In this document: positions 1,114 to 59,730 of the stretch, piece after piece
Position numbering within the stretch: position 1 is the first letter of the stretch
Layout: each line of letters starts with the position of its first letter
Source of the DNA: Pseudomonadota bacterium
GTDB lineage: Archaea > Thermoplasmatota > SW-10-69-26 > JACQPN01 > JAJPHT01
Reading direction: 5' to 3'
Length of the DNA stretch: 62,062 nucleotides
Assembly (NCBI GenBank): GCA_021325135.1
Contig: JAJPHT010000003.1
Span: 1-62,062 of the forward strand
Made by a program: the position numbers and the translations under genes
The notes under the pieces: generated by a model
What the model was told of the DNA's origin: nothing
Seen by the model: only the letters and a program-made list of their open reading frames with translations
Databases searched by the model: none

Positions 1114-1682
1114 ACGCCGTTGCCATCGCGCCCGCCGCCCTGCGCGACCTCGTGAGCCGCCTGGAGGCCGCGGCCCGCGCCATCAAGCGCGGCCACCACC
1201 GCGCCGCCGCCCGGAGCATCGCGGGCGCGGCAACGGACCTCGCCAACCTCCCCGACTTCACCGGCGAGCCCGACACCCTGGGGATCGACCGGGCCGACGT
1301 GGGCGCCACCGTCCAGACCCTCGATGCGACGGCCCGCGCGCTCCAGCAGGGGGACGACCGCGGGGCGTCCGTCGCCGTCTCCAAGATCGCCGCGGACCTC
1401 GCCGCCCTGATGGAGCCCAAGGAGGAGCGCGGGAGCTTCGGCCGCTACGAGCTGGCATGGAGCGCCCCCGGAGAGCGCACCGTCTTCCCCGTCGAGCTTC
1501 CCGGCGTGCCGCTGCGCCGCACGTTCCCCACGCACGACGACGCCCGCGCCTGGGCCGCCCTCTCGGACGCCCCCCTCTCCGGGATCGAGGGGCGCCCGCT
1601 GCGCGTGTGGCGCATCCGCGACGCGGCGAAGAAGGGCGACCGCTGGCGCATCCTCCCCGCCGACTGGAGGCTGAGCGCGTGA
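1110..1682 (+). CDS. Hypothetical protein (integrase operon)
   Basis: 190 aa ORF coupled by GTGA overlaps at both ends; normal composition. Confidence 0.7.
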   Translation: MNAVAIAPAALRDLVSRLEAAARAIKRGHHRAAARSIAGAATDLANLPDFTGEPDTLGIDRADVGATVQTLDATARALQQGDDRGASVAVSKIAADLAALMEPKEERGSFGRYELAWSAPGERTVFPVELPGVPLRRTFPTHDDARAWAALSDAPLSGIEGRPLRVWRIRDAAKKGDRWRILPADWRLSA

Positions 1683-3001
1683 GCTTCATTGACCCGCGCC
1701 TCCGCACGCGCGCCCCCGTCGCGCCGGTCGCGGCTCGCGCGCCCAAGCCCAAGACGAACGCCGAGCTTTTCGAGGACTTCTTGGCCTACCTCCCGGGCCG
1801 CCTCGCCACGACCACCGCGGAGAGCTACCGGAATTATGTCCGCGACGCCCTGGCCTACTTCCACACCGAGACGGGCGAGGAAATCCCCGTCCGCGAGTGG
1901 ACAAAGGACCTCGTGTGGGCCTACCTCCACCACGTCGAGCAGAACTATTGCCGCAAGCTGAACAGCTTCACGAGCAAGGAGGGAACGCGCGTCGTCTGCC
2001 TCAACAACGTGTGGATCGGCCACAAGGCGCCGGAGGATGGCCTGGAGTTGTGCCGCACCTGCCCCCTGTTCGAGCGGCCCACCATCGAGAAGCGCATCCA
2101 CGCCCTGAACCGCTGGATGGGCTACCTCGCCAGCCTCGGCTACGTCCCCGTGAACTTCATCCGCGACGTGCTGGCGGAGAACACCCAGGCGACGCCCCGG
2201 CACGCGCGCACCAGCAAGGGCGAGAAGAAGCGAAACCCCACGGTGGCGGAGACGGTCCGCCTCGTGAACGGCACCACGCACCCCATGAAGCGGTTCGTCT
2301 ATGCGGCCAACCTGAAGTGGGGCACGCGCCCCAACGAAATGATGGCCCTGGACCGCTTCGCCAGCTTCGGGCTCCCCACGCCCGAAGGCTGCGCCGAGCC
2401 CCCGGGCTTTGAGACGGCCTTCCGCTACCACCCCGAGGCAAAGGGCTTCGGCCTCGGGGGCCGCCTGGCCTACATTCCCGACCACAAGGGCGCCCTGGAC
2501 AAGCGCCAGGGGAACCGCTGGCTGGTCGTGGACGACGAGCTGAAGCCCCTGCTCCTGGCGGCCTTCGAGTGGTGGGAACGCAAGGTGAAGCGCCACCCGG
2601 ACGGACGCCCCGTCCATACCCGCTTGGTCATCAACGACAAGGGCCGCCCCCTGGCAAACGAGAAAATCGAGCGGATCAACTCCTCATGGTTCTACGCCGA
2701 CGCCGAGCGGTTGGGCCTCATGGTGCCCGGCGACCGAGAGAAGCCCCTCCGGCGCCTGAGCTTCGGCACCGGCCGCCACGGGTTCGAGGCCCTGGTTCAA
2801 GAGCTGGAGCTGGCGCAGGACTGGCAAAACCACATGCGCGGAGACAAGCTGCACGACGCCCGCGGCCACTACTACGTTCCCACGCCCCTTGACATGGAAC
2901 GCAAGTACCTCAAGCACATTCCCACCCTGGGCTTCAGCCCGATCCCCACCACGGACGCGGCGCCGGCCAAGGCGGGGGCGAAGCAGGGGGCGAGCGCGTG
3001 A
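1679..3001 (+). CDS. Tyrosine recombinase / integrase
   Basis: N-terminal SAM-like domain (TAESYRNYVRDALAYF), box I WGTRPNEMMALD, box II GTGRHGF...HMRGDKLHDARGHYY; GTG start overlaps upstream TGA. Confidence 0.88.
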   Translation: MSFIDPRLRTRAPVAPVAARAPKPKTNAELFEDFLAYLPGRLATTTAESYRNYVRDALAYFHTETGEEIPVREWTKDLVWAYLHHVEQNYCRKLNSFTSKEGTRVVCLNNVWIGHKAPEDGLELCRTCPLFERPTIEKRIHALNRWMGYLASLGYVPVNFIRDVLAENTQATPRHARTSKGEKKRNPTVAETVRLVNGTTHPMKRFVYAANLKWGTRPNEMMALDRFASFGLPTPEGCAEPPGFETAFRYHPEAKGFGLGGRLAYIPDHKGALDKRQGNRWLVVDDELKPLLLAAFEWWERKVKRHPDGRPVHTRLVINDKGRPLANEKIERINSSWFYADAERLGLMVPGDREKPLRRLSFGTGRHGFEALVQELELAQDWQNHMRGDKLHDARGHYYVPTPLDMERKYLKHIPTLGFSPIPTTDAAPAKAGAKQGASA

Positions 3002-4874: not shown

Positions 4875-6473
4875 TCATCCGTCGCGTTGGCCGCTGGGTT
4901 TCGCCCGATCCAGCGCAGCGCGAACGCGGGGCCGGTCGCGGATGGGCTCAAAGCCTCGCCCCGTCGCCACGTCAACAGGAATATCCCACAAGAGGTCCGG
5001 AGCCTCCAGCGCCGCGACGATGGCCCCCTCTGCGGCGTCGAAATCGCCCAGCAGCAGATAGGACAGCGCGGCGTGGGCCTCCGCGGTTCCTTGCGGGCTG
5101 GGCATGGCGCGGGCGTAGGCCGCAAGCGCCTCCCGGTGGTGATCTAAGCGGGCCAGCGCGAGGCCGTAAGCTTCCCAATGTTCTCGGTTGCTATCGTCGG
5201 CTTGGATGGCATCGTTCCAGAAGGCGAGCGCGGTTTCCCGTAGGCTGCGAACATGGTCGGGATGGGCGGAGGAGGCCATGCGCTCGGCCTCCTCGGCCTT
5301 CATCGCGGCGGCCTCGGCGCGCTCGCGCCGCGAGCTGGGAGCCTCCAGCTCGACGGCCAGGCTGGGCCGTGCCGTGCGCGTCCTGCGATGCCTGCGGGCG
5401 TAGGTGGCCGCGCCCACGCACACGACGGCGGCCAGCGCGATCCCGAGGACAGCGGCCCAGGAGGGACCGGCGACCTCGGCGCGGAAGGGGGCCCGCGCGG
5501 TGCCCTTGAGCGTGGTCTGATCGAGCGAGCCCGTGAGGTCCACCCTCGCGACGGCGTCGCCCGTCTGTGTGGTCGTGGGCGTGAGGGTGGCGCGCAGCGT
5601 CCCGTTCATCGTCGCGGGCGAGCCCGTGGCGGAGTAGGTCAGTCCCGTTGTGTTGACCCAGCCCGCGAGGGGCGAGAAGTCCAAGGAGCCGGCCACCGCG
5701 AGCGTGGGGGGCGCGGTCGCCGCGATCTGGACGCCCGAGGCGTTGTCCAGCGTCACCGTGCCCGCGTCATACTCCAGCGTGACCCACCGCCGGTCTAACT
5801 CCTGCACGGTCGGCGTTTGCGTCGTGGTGTCACCCGTGGGCATCTGTTCGGCGCCTTGGTCGGACTCCAAGAGAACCGTGGAACCCTTGACCTTGAGCAG
5901 CCCGCCCCCCTCGATCATGGCGCGGCCGTAGCCAAGCGTGCCGATCAGGTGCGGGCCTGCCACCGTCTTGATGAAGGCGGGGTCCTTGGGCCCCTCCCAA
6001 TCTGTTACGCTGCCGCCCTCGCCGGGTCCTGGGCTCGCCATGCGGGTCAAGAGCTTGGGCTCCAGCTTCGCGCCCTCCCCGGTGAACGAGACGCTGGCGC
6101 CGCTCGCCGGAACAAACGCCATCCATCCTGATTCGTTTTGGGCGACGACGGCGCGGACGTTGGTGCGTTCGCTGCAAGGGTCCTGCTTGGTGACGGCGGA
6201 ACGCGCGGGGTCGCCTGTCACATTGACGCTAACCCAGCGGTGGAAGTGATAACAGACATTGGCGCGCGGGAGGAATGCAACGGCGTAGGTCTGCGAGGTG
6301 TTGCCGGCGAGGAGCGCCAAGGGATTGAATGCGGCAGTCGTGGCTCCCTGGGCCGCTAGGGGTCCGGTGGTGGATAGGTGGCTGTCCATGAGCGGCGAAC
6401 CGGCCAGGACGGCGGGCAGGGTGAGGAGCCCTGCAAGGAGCAGCGTAACTCCTTGCCCTCCCGTCACCCGCAT
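4875..6473 (-). CDS. Single-pass membrane protein: signal peptide, beta-rich extracellular domain, TM helix, cytoplasmic TPR-like domain (putative receptor)
   Basis: Signal peptide MRVTGGQGVTLLLAGLLTLPAVLA; TM WAAVLGIALAAVVCVGAATYA followed by RRHRR; TPR-like HWEAYGLALARLDHHREALAAYARA; homologous to 58291-59730. Confidence 0.8.
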   Translation of the reverse strand: MRVTGGQGVTLLLAGLLTLPAVLAGSPLMDSHLSTTGPLAAQGATTAAFNPLALLAGNTSQTYAVAFLPRANVCYHFHRWVSVNVTGDPARSAVTKQDPCSERTNVRAVVAQNESGWMAFVPASGASVSFTGEGAKLEPKLLTRMASPGPGEGGSVTDWEGPKDPAFIKTVAGPHLIGTLGYGRAMIEGGGLLKVKGSTVLLESDQGAEQMPTGDTTTQTPTVQELDRRWVTLEYDAGTVTLDNASGVQIAATAPPTLAVAGSLDFSPLAGWVNTTGLTYSATGSPATMNGTLRATLTPTTTQTGDAVARVDLTGSLDQTTLKGTARAPFRAEVAGPSWAAVLGIALAAVVCVGAATYARRHRRTRTARPSLAVELEAPSSRRERAEAAAMKAEEAERMASSAHPDHVRSLRETALAFWNDAIQADDSNREHWEAYGLALARLDHHREALAAYARAMPSPQGTAEAHAALSYLLLGDFDAAEGAIVAALEAPDLLWDIPVDVATGRGFEPIRDRPRVRAALDRAKPSGQRDG

Positions 6474-6669
6474 AGTGGCCCCGGCAACGGCCAAGTCCTG
6501 CTTGGCCTTATCCGTCCAAGGACTCCCCCGATTCACAACTAACCTACACAAAACCGCTGGCGGGGGGTGAATCGGTTCAGTTTTCACTCGGGATTTCCTG
6601 TGAAATTCGGGGAGGCACGCCGCGGCGCGAACCATTATCCGCGCCCAGGCGGCTCCTGGCGTGTTCCCC

Positions 6670-6999
6670 ATGATCGCCCGTCCTGCGCTCGGCGCCCTCA
6701 TGGTCGCGCTCCTTGCCGTCGCGCCTCTCGCGCTGGCCGACCCGGACCCTGGCAACGCGACGCCCCAGGCAGTCGTGAGCACGGCGCAGTCGTGCGCTGG
6801 CGTCGATCCGGGTCCGCCCCCTGCGCTCGTGGGTTCCTGCTGGAACGCTGCCGTCGCCTTCGGTGCGGAGGTCATCCTGCCCACGGAACTTGCGGGCGTC
6901 ATGCTCACTTGTTACGACGTGGATTATGGGCCACCCCCCAACGTCGTCTGGGGGCCGTGTGCTGCCGCTGCCCTGAACCTCACGGGCCTTCCCCCCTAA
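6670..6999 (+). CDS. Small secreted protein with two disulfide-loop repeats (putative signal peptide precursor)
   Basis: Signal peptide ending ALA; repeats SCAGVDPGPPPALVGSC and TCYDVDYGPPPNVVWGPC. Confidence 0.75.
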   Translation: MIARPALGALMVALLAVAPLALADPDPGNATPQAVVSTAQSCAGVDPGPPPALVGSCWNAAVAFGAEVILPTELAGVMLTCYDVDYGPPPNVVWGPCAAAALNLTGLPP

Positions 7000-7015
7000 T
7001 CGCTGGGCTCGCCTG

Positions 7016-7597
7016 TCACCGTCGTGCTTGGTTGGCCTCTTGCTGAATCCTGAGCGCCAGCGTGGCGACCTTGCGCCCCAGCGCGGTTAGCCGTATGCGG
7101 ACGTAGGGAACGCGGTTCTCTAGGCCCTGCTCGACCGTCACAAGGTCTAGCGCGACGATGCGGGCGCGCAGCTTGCCGGCGGGTCCGTACCCCAGCTCCA
7201 GGGCGGAGCGGAGAGCCGCGCTGTTCGTCACCGCGGGCTCGTTCGTCAGGACCACCACGAGCGCGAGGAGCGCGCGGGGCTCCTCCGTGATCCCCGGGAC
7301 CAGGGCCTCTATCTCGGCGGCGAGGTCCGCCACGCGGCGCCCGGCCTCGGTCAAGCGGACGGGGATCGGCTTGCGCTCCTCCTCCGTCTCGACCAGGCGC
7401 CAGGCGGCGAGGTCCATGCGCAACTCCGCGCTGTCCTTCTCGGCCGAGTAGCCGGTCCCGTTGTGGAAGCCGGTGGCGGTCGTCTCCTCGGGGTAGATGC
7501 TCCGGAGGTGGAGCAGGCCGCGGAACACCCGCGGACGCAGAAGAATGTCCCGCAGGTGGCCGCCCTCCCTCCTAGCGGCAGGCTTGGGGTCGGGCAA
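7016..7597 (-). CDS. Tandem winged-helix (MarR-like) transcription regulator
   Basis: Two wing motifs: PVRLTEAGRRVA and RIRLTALGRKVA; start codon uncertain (TTG). Confidence 0.7.
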   Translation of the reverse strand: MPDPKPAARREGGHLRDILLRPRVFRGLLHLRSIYPEETTATGFHNGTGYSAEKDSAELRMDLAAWRLVETEEERKPIPVRLTEAGRRVADLAAEIEALVPGITEEPRALLALVVVLTNEPAVTNSAALRSALELGYGPAGKLRARIVALDLVTVEQGLENRVPYVRIRLTALGRKVATLALRIQQEANQARR

Positions 7598-8403: not shown

Positions 8404-8613
8404 CAATCAACCAAGTCCCGTGCCACGAAACAGCACGTCACGGCGCTTGGGTTAGGTTACAGTTTGTGTCTTTTTCTCTGGGGGAATGCAACATTTCGGT
8501 TAGCTCTCAGATAGGTTCTTGTGAGCCATCGTGTTATTTTGTGGCGGGAGATAGGCTTGTCGCGGGTGATCCCCCGCCGCGTTGGGCTGCGATCCCGTGG
8601 AGACGAAAAACCA

Positions 8614-10287
8614 ATGAGACGAATCCTTGCGGTCCTCGTGACCGTCCTGATGCTTCCCCTCCTGTCCATGCCCTTCGTGTCCGCCACGGACCCGGAATGC
8701 GCGCCCGGCACCGCGACCGGAAGCTGTACCTTCACCGGCCCGACGCCCGGCGGTGTGTACGTCTATGACACGATCATCGTGCCCGCTGGCGTTACCGTGA
8801 CCTCCGACCTCTCGCTCGTGCTTCACGCGCGCAACGAGCTTCGCGTCGAGGGCAACGTCGTGGCGCCCACCGTCACGCTCGTTTCCGACCTCGCCGCCAT
8901 CGTGAGCGGCAACGTCCGCGGGCTCGACGGCAACGCGCTCACCCCGAACGGAGGCGACGTGAGCGTCACCGCCTCCAACCTCCTCTACACGGGCGTGATC
9001 CAGTCGGGCAACGGCGCCCCTGGCGTTGACGACGTGCAGAACGTCGGCGACACGCTCCCCACCGTCGCCGCGCACGCCACCCCCGGAGGCAACGGCGGCA
9101 ACGTCGTCATCAGCTCCCCCTCCCTCATCTTGCAGGGCTCATTCATCGTCGGCAACGGCGGCAAGGGCGGCTCCGCCCAGGCCATCGGCGGCACCATGTC
9201 CGCCAGCGCCATCGGCGGCGACGGCGGCGCCTCCGGCAACCTCGTCCTCCCCCCGACCTACAACGTCCTCAACGTCATCGGGGAGGGCCTTGTGACCGGC
9301 GGCGAGGGCGGCGACGGCGGCAACGCCTTCTCCCAGGTGTCTCAGACGCCCCCTTCCTACATGGCGCTCCCCAGCGACGCCGTGACGGGGCCCGTCAACG
9401 ACGCCACCCAGCAGGACCCCGGCACCGGCCCCGTCCCGCCGCTCGCGGCTGCGGTCCCCGCGCTGTACGGCCCCGACTCCTGGCCCGCGGCCAGCGACTC
9501 CCGCTCGTTCGTCGCCTGCAAGGGCGCGGACAGCACCGGGTACGGCGAGATGGGCAAGACCGGCTGCCAGGGCTGGAGCGGCTACGAGGACCGCACCACC
9601 GACGGCGGCAACGGCGGCTACGGCATCCTCCGCGGCGGGCGCGGCGGCGACGCCACCGCCTACGGCGGCCAGGGCGGCATGGGAGGGCGCGGCGGCAACG
9701 GCTTCAACCGCGACTGCACGATCTACACGAGCGGTCAGAGCACTTGCAGCAACCACTTCGGCGGCCAGGGCGGGCGCGGCGGGACCGGCGGCAACGCCTA
9801 CTCCTACGGCGGCAACGGCGGCTCCTCGGTCGTCCAGGGCGGCGCGGGCGGCGACGCCTACGCCTTCGGCGGCAAGGGCGGCACGGGCGGCCTGGGCGGC
9901 GACGGCGGCGGCGGCTGGGTCAACATGTACGACGGCGACCAGGTCTCCCAGACGCTCGCCACCATCGGCTGCATGAAGGGCATCTACACCTTCGAGGCGT
10001 TCGAGCTGGTCATCGGCTGCGGCGACTACCTGTGGGCGTCCAAGGGCACCTACTTCGTCTGCGGTGACCCCGGCGCCGCCGGTCCCGGCGGCGATCCCGG
10101 CCAGGGCTACGCCTCTGGCGGCGCGGGCGGGCGCAACCTCCAGGGCCTCGGCACCGCCGGCCCCTCGGGCAACAGCTACGGCTACCCGGGCTATTGGGGC
10201 AACAGCGGCACGCAGGGGGGACGGCAGAACACGGTCCTTCTCGTGAACGTCGCACCCGCCCAGTACGCTTCTCACGTCTGCGGTTAG
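8614..10287 (+). CDS. Secreted glycine-rich repeat protein (GGxGGxGG)
   Basis: Signal peptide MRRILAVLVTVLMLPLLSMPFVSA; many GGNGG/GGKGG/GGDGG repeats; paired Cys. Confidence 0.85.
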   Translation: MRRILAVLVTVLMLPLLSMPFVSATDPECAPGTATGSCTFTGPTPGGVYVYDTIIVPAGVTVTSDLSLVLHARNELRVEGNVVAPTVTLVSDLAAIVSGNVRGLDGNALTPNGGDVSVTASNLLYTGVIQSGNGAPGVDDVQNVGDTLPTVAAHATPGGNGGNVVISSPSLILQGSFIVGNGGKGGSAQAIGGTMSASAIGGDGGASGNLVLPPTYNVLNVIGEGLVTGGEGGDGGNAFSQVSQTPPSYMALPSDAVTGPVNDATQQDPGTGPVPPLAAAVPALYGPDSWPAASDSRSFVACKGADSTGYGEMGKTGCQGWSGYEDRTTDGGNGGYGILRGGRGGDATAYGGQGGMGGRGGNGFNRDCTIYTSGQSTCSNHFGGQGGRGGTGGNAYSYGGNGGSSVVQGGAGGDAYAFGGKGGTGGLGGDGGGGWVNMYDGDQVSQTLATIGCMKGIYTFEAFELVIGCGDYLWASKGTYFVCGDPGAAGPGGDPGQGYASGGAGGRNLQGLGTAGPSGNSYGYPGYWGNSGTQGGRQNTVLLVNVAPAQYASHVCG

Positions 10288-10443: not shown

Positions 10444-12129
10444 ATGAAGAACGTTCGTCCCATCGTTGCACTTGCCCTCCTTCTCTGTCTGGGCGCCACC
10501 ATCCTCCCGCCGCAGGCAGTCTCCACCGGAGGCGATGGCGAAGGAACGGTCTCAACGGGAGGAACCGGCGACGGCTCCGGCGGCGGCGGTTCCCCTCCGC
10601 CTTACGACTGCACGAAAGACCCATCGAACCGTGTGGACTGCGGCTCCAACGACATGTGCCCCGGCATCTCGTGGCCCGCGCCCCAGGGCTCACAAGCCAC
10701 GAGCACCGGCCACCTGGGCGGCAGCGACACCGACGATTGGGCCAACGTCGAGCTGTACCGCACCGAGACGTTGAGCGTTACGAGCGACCACGGCGCCGTC
10801 ACCTACGCGACGCCAGCTTGCGGATCGATGCCCCTCGACAAGCCCACGCCCACGAACGTCAATCAGGGCGGCGACTACGCATTCGATACCTCCGTCCCCG
10901 CTGGACTCCCAGAGGCTGCCAGCCACGTTGCCTACGCGATCACGCCGAACGACGCGACCGGCCCCGGAACCGACGTGGGCAACGTCGCCGCCGCAGCCTA
11001 CCCCGTCACCGTCGCCCCGAGCGACGCGGGCGCCGCTGGCCTGCTCCAGATCAACGGCAGCTTGCCCGACCGCGAGATGCCCGACGTGGACTGGTTCCGC
11101 TTCCACTCCACGCTGGCGGAGACGCCCGGCGTGGACGGCCAGCCCCGGGGCCTCGCCCTCGGGCTCCTCTCCGCAACGTTCTCCCCCGACTGCAACGGCG
11201 GCACCTACACCATGACGCTCTACCAGTCGGACGGCATGACCGCCATCTCCTCCGCCTCCGGCTGCGGCAGCGCAGGCGTTACCCTCTCCTGCATCACCGC
11301 CGGGTACACGGCCGTCTATGCCGAATTGACCGTCGGAGGCAAGGGCACCGGCTACACCCTCGCCCCGAGTCTTTCGCCCCTGTACCTCGTCAACGTGGAC
11401 AACGGCACCGCCCAAGACTTCGCTATCAACCCGCAAGTCCCTTGGTGCGATCCTCTGCTGCCTATGATCCTCGGCGTTGCCCAGGCTGGGAACGCAGTTG
11501 CCAACGAGGTCGGGGACGTTCTCGCCGGCATTAACCCCGCCGTCTGCCCCAGCGACGGCGGCAGCGCCCAGGTCAACGACCCCACGCTCACCCAGGCTTG
11601 CGGAATGTATGTCTGGATTCTCGACCAGCAAAACACGCTCCCCTCACAACAGATTTACAGCCACTACTTCCCAGGATGCATCCCCGAGACCTGCTATCTC
11701 CAAGCGACCGCCAGCACCGAGCAGGTTAGCCCGGACGATCCGACCGCGCCCTACTATCAAGCTGGAGCGAGTCCGACGTGCCGAACTGATAACATTTGCT
11801 ACGCCGCCGACTACGGCGGCGGATCGTTCTATGGATTCCAAGGATGGACGACGATCCAATGCACGCCCGGCACGACCGACACGAGCTTCTACGCCGAGGC
11901 CACTTGCGTGAGCCGTGGCTCCAGCATCGGTCCGGTCCAGAGCGGCCAGCTCATGCCGATCATTGAGTACCTGTACGTTCCGAAGGGAACCTGCGTTACG
12001 CACACCTTTACGCAGGGCGTAACTGCCACCCTCGCAACAAATCCCGAAGGGCAGTCCTACTCGACGGACCCTGACTTCCAGACCAGCAAGCCGATCAAAG
12101 TCTGCCACTATTCGGACGCATCTACCTGA
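10444..12129 (+). CDS. Secreted Cys-rich protein with possible pre-peptidase C-terminal (PPC)-like domain
   Basis: Signal peptide; DTDDW and DVDWFRF...YTMTLYQSDG motifs; many Cys. Confidence 0.8.
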   Translation: MKNVRPIVALALLLCLGATILPPQAVSTGGDGEGTVSTGGTGDGSGGGGSPPPYDCTKDPSNRVDCGSNDMCPGISWPAPQGSQATSTGHLGGSDTDDWANVELYRTETLSVTSDHGAVTYATPACGSMPLDKPTPTNVNQGGDYAFDTSVPAGLPEAASHVAYAITPNDATGPGTDVGNVAAAAYPVTVAPSDAGAAGLLQINGSLPDREMPDVDWFRFHSTLAETPGVDGQPRGLALGLLSATFSPDCNGGTYTMTLYQSDGMTAISSASGCGSAGVTLSCITAGYTAVYAELTVGGKGTGYTLAPSLSPLYLVNVDNGTAQDFAINPQVPWCDPLLPMILGVAQAGNAVANEVGDVLAGINPAVCPSDGGSAQVNDPTLTQACGMYVWILDQQNTLPSQQIYSHYFPGCIPETCYLQATASTEQVSPDDPTAPYYQAGASPTCRTDNICYAADYGGGSFYGFQGWTTIQCTPGTTDTSFYAEATCVSRGSSIGPVQSGQLMPIIEYLYVPKGTCVTHTFTQGVTATLATNPEGQSYSTDPDFQTSKPIKVCHYSDAST

Positions 12130-22434: not shown

Positions 22435-22448
22435 GGGGGGACTAGATC

Positions 22449-23282
22449 ACGACCACGAGCCCCACGCCCCAGCGCGAGCCCTCGCCCGACTCCAACGACC
22501 CGGAGCGGGAGAACGTCCTGCGCGCGGAGTACCAGATTGTCCGGCGCAAGATCACCGACGAGAACTTCGATTTCGTCACCGTCATCAGCGGGTACGAGGG
22601 CAGCGGGAAGTCCACGCTGGCCCTCAAGGTCGCCGGCTACACCGACCCGACGTTCGACGGCACGCGCGTAGCCTTCACGGGCGACGAGCTTCTAGAGCTG
22701 ATGGAGAGCGCGCCCCGCGGCTCCTCCATCCTCTTTGACGAGGCCGCCATGGGCCTCTACAACCGCGAGAGCATGACCGCGACAAACCGCGCGATCACCA
22801 CGGCGGCCATGATCGCCCGCGCGAAGAACTACCACATGGTCTTGTGCATCCCGTCGTTCTGGTCGCTCGACGCCTACTTCCGCGACCACCGCGCCCGCTG
22901 CTGGATTCACGTTGAACGCCGCGGCGAGGCCGTGGTTCACGTCCCCGTTCGCCAGCGGTACACCAAGGACGTGTTTTGGGAACAGGTGATCCTCCACTTC
23001 TTCAGCCCCATCAAGGGCGCCGTGTGGGACGCCTACGAGGCCCGGAAGATGGCGTTCATTCAGAAGGCGCTCAAGGCCGCGAAGGAGCGCGACCGGCCCC
23101 AGGAGAACGATGAAGACGCCGCGGCGCGCGACAACGCCTTGGCGGAGGAAATCGCCGCGAACCCCGAGTTTTGGACGCCCAAGGGATACGCGAAGCGCGG
23201 CCTCATCGCCGCGCGCTATGGCCTGAGCGCCTTCCACGCGCGCCACGTTGCGGAAGTCGCCAAGGGCCACCGGGAGGGCTAG
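22449..23282 (+). CDS. P-loop ATPase of the type found in spindle-shaped/pleomorphic virus morphogenesis modules
   Basis: Walker A FVTVISGYEGSGKST lies in frame upstream of the ATG at 22701; Walker B ILFDEA; ARAKNYHMVLCIPSFWSLDAYFR. Start is non-canonical (ACG 22449 or ATC 22446). Confidence 0.85.
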   Translation, partial: TTTSPTPQREPSPDSNDPERENVLRAEYQIVRRKITDENFDFVTVISGYEGSGKSTLALKVAGYTDPTFDGTRVAFTGDELLELMESAPRGSSILFDEAAMGLYNRESMTATNRAITTAAMIARAKNYHMVLCIPSFWSLDAYFRDHRARCWIHVERRGEAVVHVPVRQRYTKDVFWEQVILHFFSPIKGAVWDAYEARKMAFIQKALKAAKERDRPQENDEDAAARDNALAEEIAANPEFWTPKGYAKRGLIAARYGLSAFHARHVAEVAKGHREG

Positions 23283-27649: not shown

Positions 27650-27923
27650 GATGGTTCACCAGGGAGGCCTACGGGCTTCCCGGAGCATCGACGGATCGCT
27701 CCGTGCATAACAGTTGTTGCAGACGAATGCTCAACGTGTTACAGCGCTATGCCAATCTTCGATCTGTCCGGATCGCCGGCGCCAGGCGTGGCGGGCCCTT
27801 TCCACCGCGTGCAGGTTGTCGAGGCTTGTTGTGAAATTCGTCCACGCCATGCGACGAGCGGCGACGAATCTGCATACGAAATGCTGCTTGCCGGGATGGA
27901 TTTCCTGTGCGTGGGGCGTCGCG

Positions 27924-28292
27924 TCACTTCGCGCGGCGCACGACGATGCTCTCGTGGAGCGTCTCCTCGCCCATGCCGCGCAGGCGGGCCATGAGGGGCT
28001 CCTCGGACGCGGCGAGGCGGTGCAGGCCGCGGCCGTTGACGCTGAGCGCCTCGTCGATCCAGCCGCGGGGCTCGGCCAGCGGAAGCACCTGCGTCGGGCG
28101 CAGCCCCTTGAACGAGCGGTACTCCTGCCGCCGCACGCTGCCGCGCGCGAGGTCGATGCCGCCCAGCCCCTCGCTCCTCAGCTCGGCGAGGATCGCCGCG
28201 CGCAGCTCGTCGCGCCGCTGCTCCAGGAGGCGGATCTGCTCCTCGAGGTCGAAGCACTCCTCGACGAGCAGCGGAAGGGCGCCGGTGGACAC
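27924..28292 (-). CDS. Hypothetical protein, N-terminal coiled coil
   Basis: LVEECFDLEEQIRLLEQRRDELRAAILAEL. Confidence 0.6.
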   Translation of the reverse strand: MSTGALPLLVEECFDLEEQIRLLEQRRDELRAAILAELRSEGLGGIDLARGSVRRQEYRSFKGLRPTQVLPLAEPRGWIDEALSVNGRGLHRLAASEEPLMARLRGMGEETLHESIVVRRAK

Positions 28293-28338
28293 GGCCCCTT
28301 GGAGGCGGCAGGGCCTACAAGAAGGCGGCGTCGCCCGC

Positions 28339-54742: not shown

Positions 54743-55936
54743 ATGCTCGTCGGCCTCGTGGGCAAGCCCAACGTGGGCAAGTCCACCTTCTTCTCCGCGT
54801 CCACCAAGGCCCCCGCGGAGATCGCCAACTACCCCTTCACCACCATCGCCCCCAACCGCGGCGTGGCCTACCTCCGCGCGCCCTGCCCCCACGTCGCCCT
54901 GGGCCTCGCGGCCTGCACGCCCCGCACCGGCAAGTGCGCCGAGGGCACGCGCTGGATCCCCGCCGAGGTGCTCGACGTCGCGGGCCTCGTCCCCGACGCG
55001 CACGCCGGCAAGGGCATGGGCAACAAGTTCCTCGACGACCTGCGCGCGGCGGACGTGCTGATCCACGTCGTGGACGCCTCCGGCTCCACCGACAGCGAGG
55101 GCAACCCCGTCCCCGCCCACTCCCACGACCCCGCCAAGGACGTCGAGTTCCTCACCCGCGAGCTGGACGCCTGGATCGGCGGCATCCTGGGCAAGGACTT
55201 CGCCGCCACCGCCCGCGGCATCACCATGAAGAACGCCAAGCCCGAGGTCGTCCTCGCGGAGCGCCTCACGGGGCTGGGCGTCAAGGAGCACGACCTCGCC
55301 AAGGCCATCGCGAAGTCGGAGATGCCCCCCGTCGTCACCAAGTGGACCGACGAGGACCTCATCCGCCTCGGGGGCGAGATCCGCCGCCAGAGCAAGCCCA
55401 TCCTCCTCGCCCTCAACAAGGCTGACAGCGCGGACCCTGCCACCGTGAAGCGCCTCCAGGGCCTTGGCCTCACCGCCGTCCCCACCAGCGCCTCCAGCGA
55501 GCTGGCCCTCCGCAAGGCCGCCGACGCGGGCGTCGTCCGCTACGAGCCGGGCGACGCGGACTTCACCCTCGTGGACGAGTCCAAGCTCAACGCCGCCCAG
55601 AAGAAGGGCCTGGAGCAGATCCGCGAGAAGGTCATGCGCCCCTTCGGCGGCACCGGCGTCCAGAAGCTCCTGGAGGAGGCCGTCTACCGCTTCCTCGACC
55701 GCGTCGTCGTCTACCCCGTCGAGGACGAGACGCACTTCACCGACAAGGAGGGGCGCGTGCTCCCCGACGCGCACCTCCTCAAGCGCGGCGCCACCGCCCG
55801 CGACCTCGCGTACAAGGTCCACACCGACCTGGGCGAGCACTTCATCCGCGGCGTCAACGCGCGCACGAAGCGCGTCGTGGGGGCCGAGTATGAAGTGCAG
55901 GACGGGGACGTGATCCGGATCGTCGCGGGGAAGTGA
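54743..55936 (+). CDS. ychF: YchF/Obg-family ATPase, archaeal type
   Basis: GLVGKPNVGKST, NYPFTT, DVAGLV, GMGNKFLDDLR, NKAD, C-terminal TGS domain. Confidence 0.95.
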   Translation: MLVGLVGKPNVGKSTFFSASTKAPAEIANYPFTTIAPNRGVAYLRAPCPHVALGLAACTPRTGKCAEGTRWIPAEVLDVAGLVPDAHAGKGMGNKFLDDLRAADVLIHVVDASGSTDSEGNPVPAHSHDPAKDVEFLTRELDAWIGGILGKDFAATARGITMKNAKPEVVLAERLTGLGVKEHDLAKAIAKSEMPPVVTKWTDEDLIRLGGEIRRQSKPILLALNKADSADPATVKRLQGLGLTAVPTSASSELALRKAADAGVVRYEPGDADFTLVDESKLNAAQKKGLEQIREKVMRPFGGTGVQKLLEEAVYRFLDRVVVYPVEDETHFTDKEGRVLPDAHLLKRGATARDLAYKVHTDLGEHFIRGVNARTKRVVGAEYEVQDGDVIRIVAGK

Positions 55937-56012: not shown

Positions 56013-56876
56013 ATGGCGGAGGCGCGACCCCTTGGAGCTCCGGGCACCGCCGCCCTCGCCTTCGTCCTCCTCTCCTTCGCGCTCAACAGCGTCGTCACGC
56101 GCCTCGTGGTGGGCGGCGGTCTCCTGGACCCGGGCCTGGCCACCGTCGCGCGCTTCGTCGCGGGCGCGCTCATGCTGGCCCTCGTGGCGCTCGCCCGCGG
56201 CAGGCCCCGCGACGCGCGGCCGGGGCGGCGCAGCGTGGCGCCCGCGCTGTGGCTGGGCGCCTACGCGCTGCTCATCTCCTATGGATACGCGCACATCGGC
56301 GCGGCGGCGGGGACGTTCGTCTTCTACGCGCTGGTCCTCGCCACCATGACCGCGGGCGGCGCGCTCATGGACCGCAAGGCGCCGCCGTGGCGCGCGATCG
56401 CGGGCGGCCTCCTCGCGCTCGCGGGCGTTGGCGTCCTCGCGCTGGGGCGCCTCGCGGGCACGACGCCCCTGGGCGTGGCGCTGCTGGCGGGCACGGGCGT
56501 CGCGTGGGGCGCGTACAGCCTGCACGGGCGCCGGCAGCCCGACGCGTTCGCGTTCAGCGCCGGCAACTTCGCGCTCCTCGCCCTGGCGCTCCTGCCGCTG
56601 GGCGGCGCGCTCCTGGCCGCGGGCGCCGCGTGGACCGCGCGCGGGGCGCTGCTGGCCATCGCCATGGGCGCGCTCACCACCGCGCTGGCCTACGTCGCGT
56701 GGTACCGCCTGCTGCCCGCGATCCCGTCCGCCCAGGCCGCGACCTACCAGATGCTCATCCCGGTGCTCGCCGCGGGGATCGCCGTCGCCGCGCTGGGGGA
56801 GCCGCTCTCGTGGCGCTTCGCCCTGGCCGCCGCGCTGGTGCTGGGCGGCATGGCGCTGGCGGGCCTCAGGAGATGA
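56013..56876 (+). CDS. DMT/EamA family transporter
   Basis: Ten TM segments; AQAATYQMLIPVLA...LGEPLS. Confidence 0.9.
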   Translation: MAEARPLGAPGTAALAFVLLSFALNSVVTRLVVGGGLLDPGLATVARFVAGALMLALVALARGRPRDARPGRRSVAPALWLGAYALLISYGYAHIGAAAGTFVFYALVLATMTAGGALMDRKAPPWRAIAGGLLALAGVGVLALGRLAGTTPLGVALLAGTGVAWGAYSLHGRRQPDAFAFSAGNFALLALALLPLGGALLAAGAAWTARGALLAIAMGALTTALAYVAWYRLLPAIPSAQAATYQMLIPVLAAGIAVAALGEPLSWRFALAAALVLGGMALAGLRR

Positions 56877-57267
56877 GGCGCGGGGCGCTTCGCGCAAGGA
56901 GCCGGTCGAGGAAGATGGCCAGCTCGCCGCGCGCGATGGGCTTCTGGAGGAAGCGGTGCGGCCGCGCCAGCTCCACCTTGCGCGCGGGGAGCGTCGCCTC
57001 GCGGAAGCCGCTGGCGAGCACGCGCAGCCCGTCCGGGTGGCGGCGCCGCGCGGCGGCAAGCAGGTCGAGGCCGTCCAGGTGGGGCATGCGGTAGTCCGCG
57101 ACGACGAGGTCGAAGGTCGTCTCGGCGAGGAGGCGCGCCGCCGCGCGGCTGTCGTCCATGGTCGTCACCGAGAGGCGCGCCGAGCGGCAGCCCGCCGCCG
57201 CGCCCTCGAAGAGGGGGAAGATCTCCTGCACGTCGTCCACGACGAGCATGCGCGCCCGCGGGGTCAT
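56866..57267 (-). CDS. Stand-alone response regulator receiver
   Basis: LVVDD, FDLVVADYRMPHLDGLDLL, LASG, FLQKP. Confidence 0.92.
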   Translation of the reverse strand: MTPRARMLVVDDVQEIFPLFEGAAAGCRSARLSVTTMDDSRAAARLLAETTFDLVVADYRMPHLDGLDLLAAARRRHPDGLRVLASGFREATLPARKVELARPHRFLQKPIARGELAIFLDRLLARSAPRLIS

Positions 57268-57278
57268 CGCGGACGCTC

Positions 57279-57914
57279 TTAGACGGCCTTCCCTTCAACC
57301 TGCGGCGCGGAGGACGTGGGGGCGCTCTCCGCTGGAGCGTCGTGTGAATCGTCGCCCTTGGCGCCCAGCATGACGTAGAGCTTGGGCGTGGCGACGAGGC
57401 CGCGAGGGTCGTGGGGCGTGCCGCGCTGCACCATGCCCGCGTCCAGGAGGCGCTTCGCGTGGTAGTAGACGACGCGCTGCGAGAGGCCCGTGCGCGCGAT
57501 GAGCTCCGCGACGGTGAGGCGCGGGTGCTCGACGATGGTGAGCGCGAGGCGGCGGCTCGTCTCCTCGTGGAGAAGGGCGCGGTCCTCGGGCGACTCGTCC
57601 AGCGGCGCGGGGTAGGGGTAGACCAGGCGCCGGCGGCCCGCGCGGCGCGTGTCGACGAGCTTCGCCGCGGAGAGGACCTGGAGATGGTGGATGAGGCCCC
57701 CCAGCGTCATGCCGGCGCGGCGCGCGAGGTCGCGCACCGTGATGCCGGGGTGCTTGAGGACGAGGTGGTAGACCTGCATCCTCAGGGGAGAGTGGAGGGC
57801 GGGGGGCGCGTCCCCCTGGCGGATCAGGCCCAGGAGGGCGACCGGGACGAGGCCGCGGAGGGTCCCTTCAAGGAGTTCCTGACGCCAATCCACGGTCGCA
57901 CCCTGGGGGTGCAC
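57279..57914 (-). CDS. Tandem winged-helix (ArsR/COG3398-like) transcription regulator
   Basis: HPGITVRDLARRAGMTLGGLIHHLQVL and HPRLTVAELIARTGLSQRVVYYHAKRL. Confidence 0.88.
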   Translation of the reverse strand: MHPQGATVDWRQELLEGTLRGLVPVALLGLIRQGDAPPALHSPLRMQVYHLVLKHPGITVRDLARRAGMTLGGLIHHLQVLSAAKLVDTRRAGRRRLVYPYPAPLDESPEDRALLHEETSRRLALTIVEHPRLTVAELIARTGLSQRVVYYHAKRLLDAGMVQRGTPHDPRGLVATPKLYVMLGAKGDDSHDAPAESAPTSSAPQVEGKAV

Positions 57915-57917
57915 GCC

Positions 57918-58112
57918 TCAGGCGTTGTTTGAGCCTTGCCCTGCTGTCGGGCACTCATAGACGTCCAGGGGGTGCGAGGGGTCGGGGTTGACGCTTACAC
58001 AGGAGGCGTCTCCGGCCGCGGGGGGCGAGGACGGGAGGGCCACCTCCGCGAGGGCTCCGGGGAGCGCGAGTCCGATCATCAGGCAAGTCAGGAGGGCAGT
58101 TGTTCTCAACAT
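57918..58112 (-). CDS. Small secreted peptide with one disulfide loop (putative signal precursor)
   Basis: Signal peptide ending ALA; SCVSVNPDPSHPLDVYEC. Confidence 0.7.
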   Translation of the reverse strand: MLRTTALLTCLMIGLALPGALAEVALPSSPPAAGDASCVSVNPDPSHPLDVYECPTAGQGSNNA

Positions 58113-58290
58113 GGTGGAGACCACCGGCGCGTGCTCGTCGCCGGCATCCTTCAGGGCGTCGCGCAGGGCCCCTTCGCGAATTCACAGCATCCGACGGGAG
58201 GCCTCGAACGCGTCAGGAAGGGGTGGGGGCACCCCATCGGGTGCTTACAGTGTCAGAAAACAGAAACGATCGCTCCGGATTCGGCGGGGC

Positions 58291-59730
58291 GTGAAGGCCG
58301 TCGCGATCCTGCTGGGGGCGCTCCTCGCCCTTCCGGGCGCGTGGGCGGCCCCGGCGCAGGGGGTCCTCCACCTGGCGGGCCCCGCGACCTTCCAGGCGCC
58401 CAGCGTCCACTCGGGCGGCGCCCTCACGGCCTACTGCGGCAGCACGGGCGGGGTCGGCTCCTTTATCCTGCGCGCCTCGCGCGTCCACGTCGACGCCTAC
58501 GAGGCCGACTACGTGGACGCGCAGACGCCCGTCGCGGACCACGTGAACTACCGCACGGGCCTCCAGCACGCCTCCTACGACCTCACCGACGTCACGGCGA
58601 CCCTCTCGGGGGACCCCGCGCCGGGCTGGCTGGGCGTGGACCTCTTCGAGGGCGGAAGCCTCCTGGCCAACGCGACGGCGGGCGCCTCCCTCGCGCAGGA
58701 GGACGGCATCCTGGGCAACGGCCCCACCGGCGACAACCCCGAGGCGCCCGCCTACGCGCACCGCGTGGACGGCGGGCTCGTCCTGGGCTCCGTCGCCTCG
58801 TGGGAGTACGCCGGGAAGGGCTCCGTCAAGGTGAGCGGCCTCTCGCTGGACCTGCGCGCGCGGGAGAACGAGACGGTCCTCGCCACGGGCTGGTCGCGGG
58901 GGGAAGGCCCCGTCGCGACGCTCGCCCAGCGCTGGGCCCTCCTCGCCTTCCCCGCGGGCTCCCTCTCCCTCGCCAGCGCCCTGCCCTGCTCGGTCGCGCT
59001 GCGCTCCGACGCCGCGCGCTGGACCGGGGAGGCTGTGCTCACCGGCGCGTCGGGCGTCCTGGACGTCGGCGGCCGCTCCTACGAGGCACAAGGGGGTCCC
59101 GCGACGGTGGCCGGGGCGCTGCACGCCGACGCGACTCCCGCTGGGCAGGGCATGGACCTCCGCCTGGAGGGCGACGTGCAGACGACGAGCCTCGCCTCGG
59201 CGAACGTCCCCACCTCGGCGACGGGCCTCGTCGTGTGGCCGTGGATCGCCCTGGCCGCGCTGGCCGTCACGGGCGGGGGCGCCCTCGCGCTCCTGCGGCC
59301 GCGAAAGCGGGAGGGCCTCGCGCTGGGGGCCGAGGAGCTGGCCGCGCTGGCGGAGATCGCGGCGGAGTCCGACCAGTTCGACGACGCCCTCGCGTGGAAC
59401 GCCCGCGCGCGCGACGCCTCGCGCACGAGCGCCCGCCTCTGGCTCGACGAAGGCTACTACCTGGAGCGGCTGGGCCGCACCGACGAGGCGTTCGCGGCCT
59501 ACCGCACGGCGGCGGAGCTGGGCGCGCCGGGCGACGCGCGCCTCTGCGAGGCGCGGCTGCTCCTCAAGCTCGGCTCCCACTCCGACGCCGAGTCGAGCCT
59601 CATCGAGGCGCTGCGCGCCTCGCCCGCCAGCGTCCTGGAGGCGGAGAGCCCCGACTTCGCGCCCCTCGCGCGCCGGCCGCGCGTCCGCGCCGCCATGGAC
59701 GAGGCGCGGCGCATCATGGAGCGCGGCTGA
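58291..59730 (+). CDS. Single-pass membrane protein with extracellular beta domain and cytoplasmic TPR (putative receptor)
   Basis: Signal peptide; [24 protein letters not shown] followed by RPRKR; [25 protein letters not shown]; homologous to 4875-6473. Confidence 0.8.

Follow-up and report, generated by a model that had tools for sequence, protein, structure and literature searches.

Receptors of the RRNPP type (Rap/Phr, PlcR/PapR, AimR/AimP) are soluble proteins with 5–9 TPR-like repeats, usually fused to a helix-turn-helix (HTH) domain, and bind short linear peptides that are re-imported by Opp. Anti-sigma/ECF pairs occur in many paralogous copies per genome, some with an extracytoplasmic accessory protein (RseB), and archaea are without sigma factors. 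Trans-membrane signalling in archaea is poorly known, and we know of no secreted-peptide receptor system described in them. Transmembrane transcription regulators (TTRs) form a described archaeal class, with a mean of 4 per genome (PMC10269533). The stretch analysed here, contig JAJPHT010000003.1 (62,062 nucleotides, hereafter the window), is an entire 62-kb contig of a metagenome-assembled genome (MAG) of 3.77 Mb and 71% G+C. The organism is an uncultured soil archaeon, an archaeal host having also been assumed in the original prediction. The window carries two copies of a three-gene system consisting of a membrane sensor (R), a small secreted protein (S) and a winged-helix (wHTH) regulator (T or U). 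These three genes constitute a conserved, lineage-specific module, one copy of which (R1-S1-U1, 4875–7597) lies on an inserted element and another (R2-S2-T2) on the chromosome, as the original prediction held. Its most likely role is to relay signals from outside the cell to gene expression. As judged from sequence, it appears to be a variant of membrane-coupled transcription control restricted largely to one class of uncultured Thermoplasmatota. Every element of the original prediction was found at the position given there, and the two copies comprise the following features.

4875–6473, minus strand: R1, sensor of the island copy, 532 amino acids (signal peptide 1–26, ectodomain 27–334, transmembrane (TM) helix 340–359, three TPRs at 382–524); a gene of the same length is present in an independent assembly.
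5472–6395, minus strand: R1 ectodomain, all-beta with very long strands, structural match none found.
5397–5456, minus strand: R1 TM helix, followed by a basic stretch.
4902–5330, minus strand: R1 cytoplasmic domain of three TPRs and a capping helix, of the HOP/Sti1/CHIP/Sgt2 type (VIA, Foldseek).
6474–6660, no strand: R1–S1 divergent intergenic region, 187 bp, with the promoter-like motif AATTTCACAGGAAATC at 6592–6607 (minus strand), facing R1.
6661–6999, plus strand: S1, 112 amino acids, signal peptide 1–26, two disulfide-loop motifs, no FN3-like domain; the gene is present in the independent assembly.
6793–6840, plus strand: S1 loop 1, C45–C60 (CAGVDPGPPPALVGSC).
6910–6960, plus strand: S1 loop 2, C84–C100 (CYDVDYGPPPNVVWGPC).
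7016–7597, minus strand: U1, two U-type probable winged-helix repeats, 193 amino acids; the hidden Markov model (HMM) of the U family recurs beside 8 R genes.
57279–57914, minus strand: T2, tandem ArsR-like winged-helix protein, 3 bp after S2 (Pfam HTH_24 3e-14, MarR_2 8e-13, HTH_20 5e-11; T HMM).
57918–58124, minus strand: S2, 68 amino acids, with a single loop C42–C58 (CVSVNPDPSHPLDVYEC) encoded at 57951–58001.
58291–59730, plus strand: R2, chromosomal paralogue of the same architecture, 479 amino acids, with weak Pfam TPR hits at residues 352–445.

The reading that we favour, with a probability of roughly 55%, is that R and its neighbour form a transmembrane transcription regulator split in two: the wHTH protein docks on the TPR, S is the outside partner of the ectodomain and the copies are separate channels. 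R would expose an all-beta ectodomain (300 residues) outside the cell and, beyond the TM helix, present a small three-TPR peptide-binding domain to the cytoplasm. This domain would dock the transcription factor encoded alongside, either the tandem ArsR-like T or U of the second type, so that R and T/U together would be the two-piece counterpart of the one-piece sensor-TM-wHTH proteins numerous in the same genome. A change in the ectodomain would lead to the regulator being held or released differently, and the regulator would then act on the divergent R/S promoter region and on further targets. S, once exported, would fold into a hairpin stapled by a disulfide, with poly-proline at its turn, and contact the ectodomain as ligand or co-sensor. 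The many paralogous copies would serve as separate channels with diverged specificities, the copy at 4875–7597 being probable cargo of a 27-kb inserted element. The analysis shows the architecture, the paralogy, the conservation of the three-gene set, the fusions and the insertion; what we infer in this scheme is the TPR–regulator docking, the S–ectodomain contact and the direction of signalling.

The resemblance to RRNPP and arbitrium systems, which the original prediction had put forward, is confined to a TPR protein gene adjoining a small secreted peptide gene and being tied to transcription control. Unlike the soluble RRNPP receptors, R combines a signal peptide and a TM helix with an ectodomain of 300 residues, while its TPR region holds 3 repeats and a cap (382–524) of the HOP/CHIP-like kind, with no HTH fused to it. 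The S proteins of the module (35–140 residues, with a disulfide loop) would meet the ectodomain rather than the TPR, which a secreted peptide could reach only if imported, and inspection of the loci revealed no Opp genes. The analogy therefore fails for the receptor.

The likeness to TTRs (ToxR/ToxS, TcpP/TcpH, CadC; archaeal ArnR/ArnR1) is closer, as an outside sensor is coupled via a single TM helix to a DNA-binding function at the membrane (PMC10269533, PMC6396743, PMC7496328). Some TTRs have a small extracytoplasmic partner (ToxS, TcpH), comparable to the S of the module. In contrast to TTRs, R1 and R2 carry the three-TPR domain in place of a DNA-binding domain, which is a separate protein; the DNA-binding unit of the module is a tandem ArsR-like wHTH, and the ectodomain matched no known fold in searches. 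R has an N-terminal sensor and a C-terminal cytoplasmic domain, the domain order of ToxR being the opposite. As in anti-sigma/ECF pairs (RsgI/SigI, RseA/RseB/SigE), a single-pass protein with an outward sensor is proposed to hold a soluble regulator inside; unlike them, a TPR domain would do the holding, the regulator belongs to the wHTH proteins, and no regulated-proteolysis genes lie in the loci.

The predicted order of signal peptide, large ectodomain, one TM helix and cytoplasmic TPR region agrees with the AlphaFold2 model of R1. Built from a 96-sequence alignment (mean predicted local distance difference test, pLDDT, 86), the model displays a signal helix, strands at 28–326 (each up to 23 residues), a TM helix at 340–359, a disordered basic linker and helical repeats at 382–524. 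The stretch RRHRRTR following the TM helix also agrees with the positive-inside rule. When modelled alone, the ectodomain reached a pLDDT of 93.9 and a predicted TM-score (pTM) of 0.89. Its comparison with 48,161 PDB representatives by VIA-align gave a best Z of 5.3 over ~100 of 308 residues, which is under the usual best score for models without relatives. TM-scores were at most 0.12 against PDB (Foldseek) and at most 0.31 against the ESM Atlas, and an Atlas feature search was likewise without a usable hit. As a confident model matched nothing in three structure libraries, the ectodomain is a candidate for a new sensor fold.

The TPR domain was the only match in fold searches with whole R. 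VIA aligned it with three-repeat peptide-binding TPR domains at Z 13–15 (root-mean-square deviation 2–3 Å over ~120 residues), the matches being OM64, HOP TPR1/2A/2B, Sti1, CHIP and Sgt2 (Z 14–15), and whole-fold Foldseek gave a probability of 1.0 to TPR chains. The match at Z 14–15 places the domain in the TPR superfamily of tandem 34-residue repeats in a right-handed superhelix. By overall fold it is nearest to the three-TPR 'carboxylate clamp' domains of HOP/Sti1, CHIP, Sgt2 and PP5 (PDB 1elw, 3upv, 3uq3, 2c2l, 5lyn, 1a17). At the sequence level, Pfam TPR hits for R2 fall under the gathering score (TPR_8 21.9 vs 25.7) and R1 has none; Pfam detected no DNA-binding domain in R1 and R2.

R1 and R2 are homologous, with 29% identity over 377 residues (BLASTP, E 4e-15), and every sequence block earlier quoted as shared between them falls inside this alignment. 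The genome encodes at least 10 full-length R paralogues, plus several divergent ones, and an exhaustive profile search of metagenomes returned at least 504 clusters (50% identity) at E <= 1e-30, nearly all of 450–580 residues and matched end to end. A profile of the ectodomain alone had hits in 22 of 301 Thermoplasmatota genomes, that is, in 19 of the 21 sampled from the class of the window (its own genome included) and in 3 of ~280 from the rest of the phylum. No member of the family bears a name, and Pfam gives only weak TPR hits. A word-index protein search with R was swamped by generic TPR proteins, and a search for related loci with R2 alone found nothing. The codon-position G+C is consistent with coding for both R genes and both small secreted ORFs, the third-position value being 0.78–0.83 for island genes vs 0.92–0.97 for chromosomal genes. 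In the independent assembly, genes of 532, 112 and 193 residues are called at the same places.

The association of R with a regulator was monitored by running T and U profiles, the latter built from 7016–7597 of the window and three others, over 28 R loci. A regulator stands beside R in 27 of them (T in 19, U in 8, both in none), and the remaining locus ends at a contig edge; the chance expectation is ~10% (~61 T- or U-like open reading frames (ORFs) in 3.77 Mb, ~6 kb per locus). T follows S in one operon, co-oriented with gaps of 3–11 bp and divergent from R, while U is mostly convergent and just downstream of R; in the window and at the metagenome loci L138 and L139, U is upstream of R beyond S. 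The assignment of both regulators to the winged-helix type stands for T2, whose Pfam bit scores exceed the gathering scores (HTH_24 52.8 against 21.9, MarR_2 48.8 against 27, HTH_20 42.8 against 27; two stretches each). For U1 the wHTH matches are weak (HTH_34 E 0.21; MarR chains E 0.1), though its language-model (Atlas) neighbours are all wHTH at ~0.9 and it belongs to a recurrent family whose consensus resembles H1-H2-H3-wing; a WHD_ArnR1 hit on the L138 homologue is faint. U is probably a winged-helix protein.

Domain fusions, and TPR-only proteins beside the same regulators, lend independent support to the link between receptor and regulator. In four divergent relatives of R, an R-type ectodomain is followed by a tandem wHTH, in the place of the TPR, at C1:7522–9450, C30:45699–47462 and C40:225180–226793 of this genome and at L035 in another family of the order (ectodomain E 1e-11, 2e-6, 2e-10 and 2.5e-15, respectively; wHTH E 1e-18 to 1e-27). 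A strict TM rule, applied to the first three, finds the intervening helix in C1 and C30 and none in C40. A DNA-binding domain and a TM helix occur in one polypeptide in the C1, C30 and L035 proteins, and not in R1 or R2; the C1 and C30 paralogues are true TTRs on the same ectodomain. In the fused forms the juxtamembrane segment reads L-Y-x-R-h-x-P-x-x-h-L-E-x-x-x-R, and free T proteins begin with a stretch similar to it. Eighteen ORFs contain the module-type TPR, and 13 of these have T or U at most 900 bp away. They include two ORFs devoid of the ectodomain, C23:6596–7255 (TM and TPR), with U 3 bp away, and C46:102590–103390 (TPR), with T 57 bp away.

Since the same ectodomain is found either fused to wHTH or split from it with a TPR, R and T/U would make up a split transmembrane regulator with the TPR as docking site. 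The occurrence of one sensor domain both fused to a DNA-binding output and split with a TPR in between makes the logic readable from sequence. This split/fused pattern predicts a specific TPR–regulator contact and a specific ectodomain partner, and the module, with its 504 or more clusters and at least ten copies in each genome of this archaeon and its relatives, offers a large, directly testable family for the study of such signalling.

As to the arrangement of the two loci without the ectodomain, the TM-TPR protein is convergent with the U-type regulator at C23:6596–7968, while at C46:102590–104571 the TPR protein is followed by the T regulator and then by a second TPR-like ORF. The genome also encodes at least 12 further proteins with a signal peptide, another kind of ectodomain, a TM helix and a tandem wHTH, which belong to the TTR class. 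Such proteins are encoded at C12:105301–106461, C31:18015–19520, C39:14404–15756, C5:39656–41182 and C6:8028–9575, and further ones at C23:97969–99603, C49:79472–81817, C45:9541–11499 and C15:132118–133838; all of these have the juxtamembrane motif L-Y-x-R-h-x-P-x-x-h-L-E-x-x-x-R in common. With 64 tandem-wHTH-like ORFs, the genome is far over the archaeal mean of 4 transmembrane regulators (PMC10269533).

The small secreted ORFs with the previously quoted Cys loops are present beside both receptors of the window; S1 is 187 bp from R1 and S2 166 bp from R2, both divergent from the receptor and with a Sec-type signal peptide. S1 and S2 do not align significantly with each other (BLAST, E 0.12). 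Aligned with one another, the loops of 21 S sequences stay in register and give the pattern C-phi-x-phi-x(2-4)-P-P-P-x-phi-x(2-5)-C, readable as a hairpin that is stapled by a disulfide and turns at the prolines. In most S proteins a signal peptide, an FN3-like domain of ~85 residues and the loop are followed by a short tail, with G-L-P as a frequent ending; some, S2 included, consist of the loop only, and S1 departs from the rest by its two loops and its lack of an FN3-like part. When fn3 models were compared with three S proteins, one gave a weak match (E 0.04) and two gave none; S1 and S2 are without the FN3-like part. A word-index protein search with S returned 8 hypothetical proteins only.

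For counting, S was defined as an ORF of 40–230 residues, at most 900 bp upstream, with a signal-peptide-like start, C-x(9-21)-C with at least 2 prolines, and at most 4 cysteines. This rule is passed by 10 of 11 R paralogues of the genome. Among long control genes of the same genome it is passed by 30 of 1485, six of which are R genes, leaving 24 of 1479 (1.6%), so that the association of R with a secreted C-loop ORF is well above chance. The strict rule also holds for 13 of the 19 sufficiently flanked loci from ten further genomes within the genus, family and class, and further loci have FN3-type S proteins with fewer prolines. The S proteins of L013, L120, L124, L126, L012 and the window (6661–6999) share a conserved short tail, V-G-L-P, R-L-P, G-L-P-H-P or G-L-P-P. 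Just downstream of a fused sensor-TM-wHTH gene, C49:81899–82795 holds three tandem ORFs of 60–66 amino acids with signal peptides and Cys loops (CHDVTVPFPKEIDPVHC, CQRIHVSEPVALADPTNC, CVVEHVPAPVDERAGC).

As for the role of S, a ligand, possibly an autoinducer, and a ToxS-like bound co-sensor carry comparable weight. The possibility that S is a co-sensor or stabiliser bound to the ectodomain, as in ToxS-ToxR, TcpH-TcpP and RseB-RseA, where it would tune the response or protect R from proteolysis, is given a low probability. It agrees with the one-to-one pairing of the genes and with the folded FN3-like domain of most S copies. At L133 and L025, in a second family of the class, S has its loop before the FN3-like part, and its gene immediately precedes R, co-oriented and 14 bp away, as genes for subunits of a complex often do. 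ToxR-ToxS is an established precedent (PMC7496328). At most loci, however, S is transcribed with T and not with R, and the short S copies have no domain beyond the loop.

Peptide quorum sensing, or autoinduction, is unlikely as an account of the module. A diffusible, disulfide-cyclised S would here be sensed by its cognate R, freeing the regulator and activating the S-T operon in a positive feedback, and the element would use a private channel for related elements or host density. The secretion of S, its small size in several copies (35–42 mature residues) and a conserved stapled loop between variable flanks would suit such a role. An autoinducer role of S is possible because S and T form an operon, and their co-orientation, with gaps of 3–11 bp and divergence from R, is the gene order of an autoinduction loop. 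The large number of diverged copies in each genome, with the R of the element at most 31% identical to the host paralogues found by BLAST, would also fit. However, at 12–16 kDa and with an FN3-like domain, most S proteins are big for a signal that has to diffuse; the loci show no conserved processing protease or exporter, and the closest relatives of the module of the element stand beside cellular genes. A single complex prediction for the R2 ectodomain and mature S2, made without controls, gave an ipSAE of 0.00–0.01 and is silent on binding either way. A bolder proposal appears doubtful to us, namely that S proteins are secreted stapled signals read by cognate ectodomains, constituting the first peptide- or protein-based extracellular signalling in Archaea, with at least 10 private channels per cell, a new sensor fold, and elements carrying their own channel to sense kin or host state.

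The reading of the module as a split transmembrane regulator has several observations to contend with. The carboxylate clamps of HOP/Sti1, CHIP, Sgt2 and PP5 are eukaryotic co-chaperone domains binding EEVD C-termini, the usual target of HOP-type TPRs, and no conserved C-terminal tail of this kind was found on T or U. T-like proteins are abundant in the genome (64 hits), which raises the background of adjacency. The S gene is missing or unrecognised at L118, L123, L129 and L130 and beside most fused forms, and because of this S may be dispensable to the module. Moreover, a quick tree of R has the shape of a star, its median terminal branch being 1.3 and 15 of its 25 inner branches unresolved; the R paralogues are too diverged for co-divergence with their partners to be read from it.

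A further explanation without signalling, in which R and S form a surface structure for adhesion or the envelope, the TPR is a scaffold and the wHTH is the local transcription factor of the operon, is quite improbable. While the ectodomain has no recognisable ligand-binding fold, the FN3-like domain of S is common in surface proteins and the promoter-like motif is common to many other secreted-protein genes, the ectodomain-wHTH fusions are hard to reconcile with a purely structural protein, and a TPR-wHTH pairing that persists without the ectodomain is likewise hard to explain. The motif itself, in forms like AATTTCACAGGAAATC, recurs between R and S at other copies and ahead of other genes for secreted proteins. 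It was considered as a shared operator specific to the module and rejected, as it also precedes unrelated secreted-protein genes; from its distribution it appears to be a general promoter-like element. A promoter-like motif AATTTCACA[GA]GAAT[TC]C precedes R genes by 60–135 bp and several unrelated secreted-protein genes by ~80 bp. Its sites include 6592–6607 (minus strand) and near 58175–58190 in the window, C19:814, C19:24883, C45:66895, C46:87969, C41:8752, C36:89164 and C37:6228, and the AATTTCACA motif may be a promoter element specific to the class.

The island that bears the first copy was delimited by synteny.

460–27880, no strand: inserted element of ~27.4 kb bearing R1-S1-U1, by synteny with a congeneric genome; G+C 0.67–0.70 inside vs 0.71–0.77 outside.

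In the congeneric genome, the seryl-tRNA-synthetase-like gene (which ends at 443 in the window) directly adjoins the homologue of 27882–28328, with synteny continuing. Since these flanks are adjacent there, ~460–27880 is an insertion, and the element is an integrated mobile element. It had been called a provirus; the insertion of 27 kb is borne out, and the element may be viral. A search of 20 island ORFs against Pfam and PHROGs detected no capsid, portal, terminase or other virion hallmark, nearly all being without a family. The sole family match is a DnaA-like AAA+ ATPase at 22446–23282 (PHROG 5484, E 4e-9), whose reading frame is already open before the first canonical start codon. An integrase-like ORF of 440 amino acids (1679–3001) has no Pfam match, and no direct (att-like) repeats longer than 10 bp are present at the island ends.

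The nearest relatives of R1, on metagenome contigs L138 and L139, have ~35% identity, the same U-S-R order and a homologous single-loop S. One of these modules adjoins genes for ArsA, a tRNA-deacylase and a permease, without similarity to the rest of the island. The specific tie of the module to the element that had been supposed is not supported. As both metagenome contigs keep its gene order, and the neighbours on one are ordinary cellular genes, the island copy looks like movable cargo and not a core viral function; its residence on a mobile element suggests that channels of this kind are passed from genome to genome. An arbitrium-like decision, with the element as a temperate virus and R1/S1/U1 setting lysis-lysogeny, is extremely improbable: the module does lie on a 27-kb insertion with an ATPase matching a viral family, but virion hallmarks were not detected in the 20 ORFs, Pfam does not match the integrase-like ORF, the receptor differs from AimR in being membrane-bound, with 3 TPRs and no HTH, and homologous modules occur in cellular contexts.

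A further gene of the chromosomal locus follows T2.

56866–57267, minus strand: receiver-only response regulator, 11 bp after T2 on the same strand (Pfam Response_reg 4.3e-13).

A receiver-only gene also follows T at locus L121 of the congeneric genome G001 (5355–5726), and no histidine kinase was seen nearby. On the island, 8521–10287 and 10444–12129 (plus strand) encode Gly-rich secreted proteins of 557 and 561 amino acids that contain GG-repeat stretches and match no family. In the window as a whole, neither the Rfam scan nor the tRNA scan gave a hit. The GTPase gene at 54743–55936 has 87% identity to that of a "Thermoplasmata archaeon" MAG, and its next relatives are all from Thermoplasmatota.

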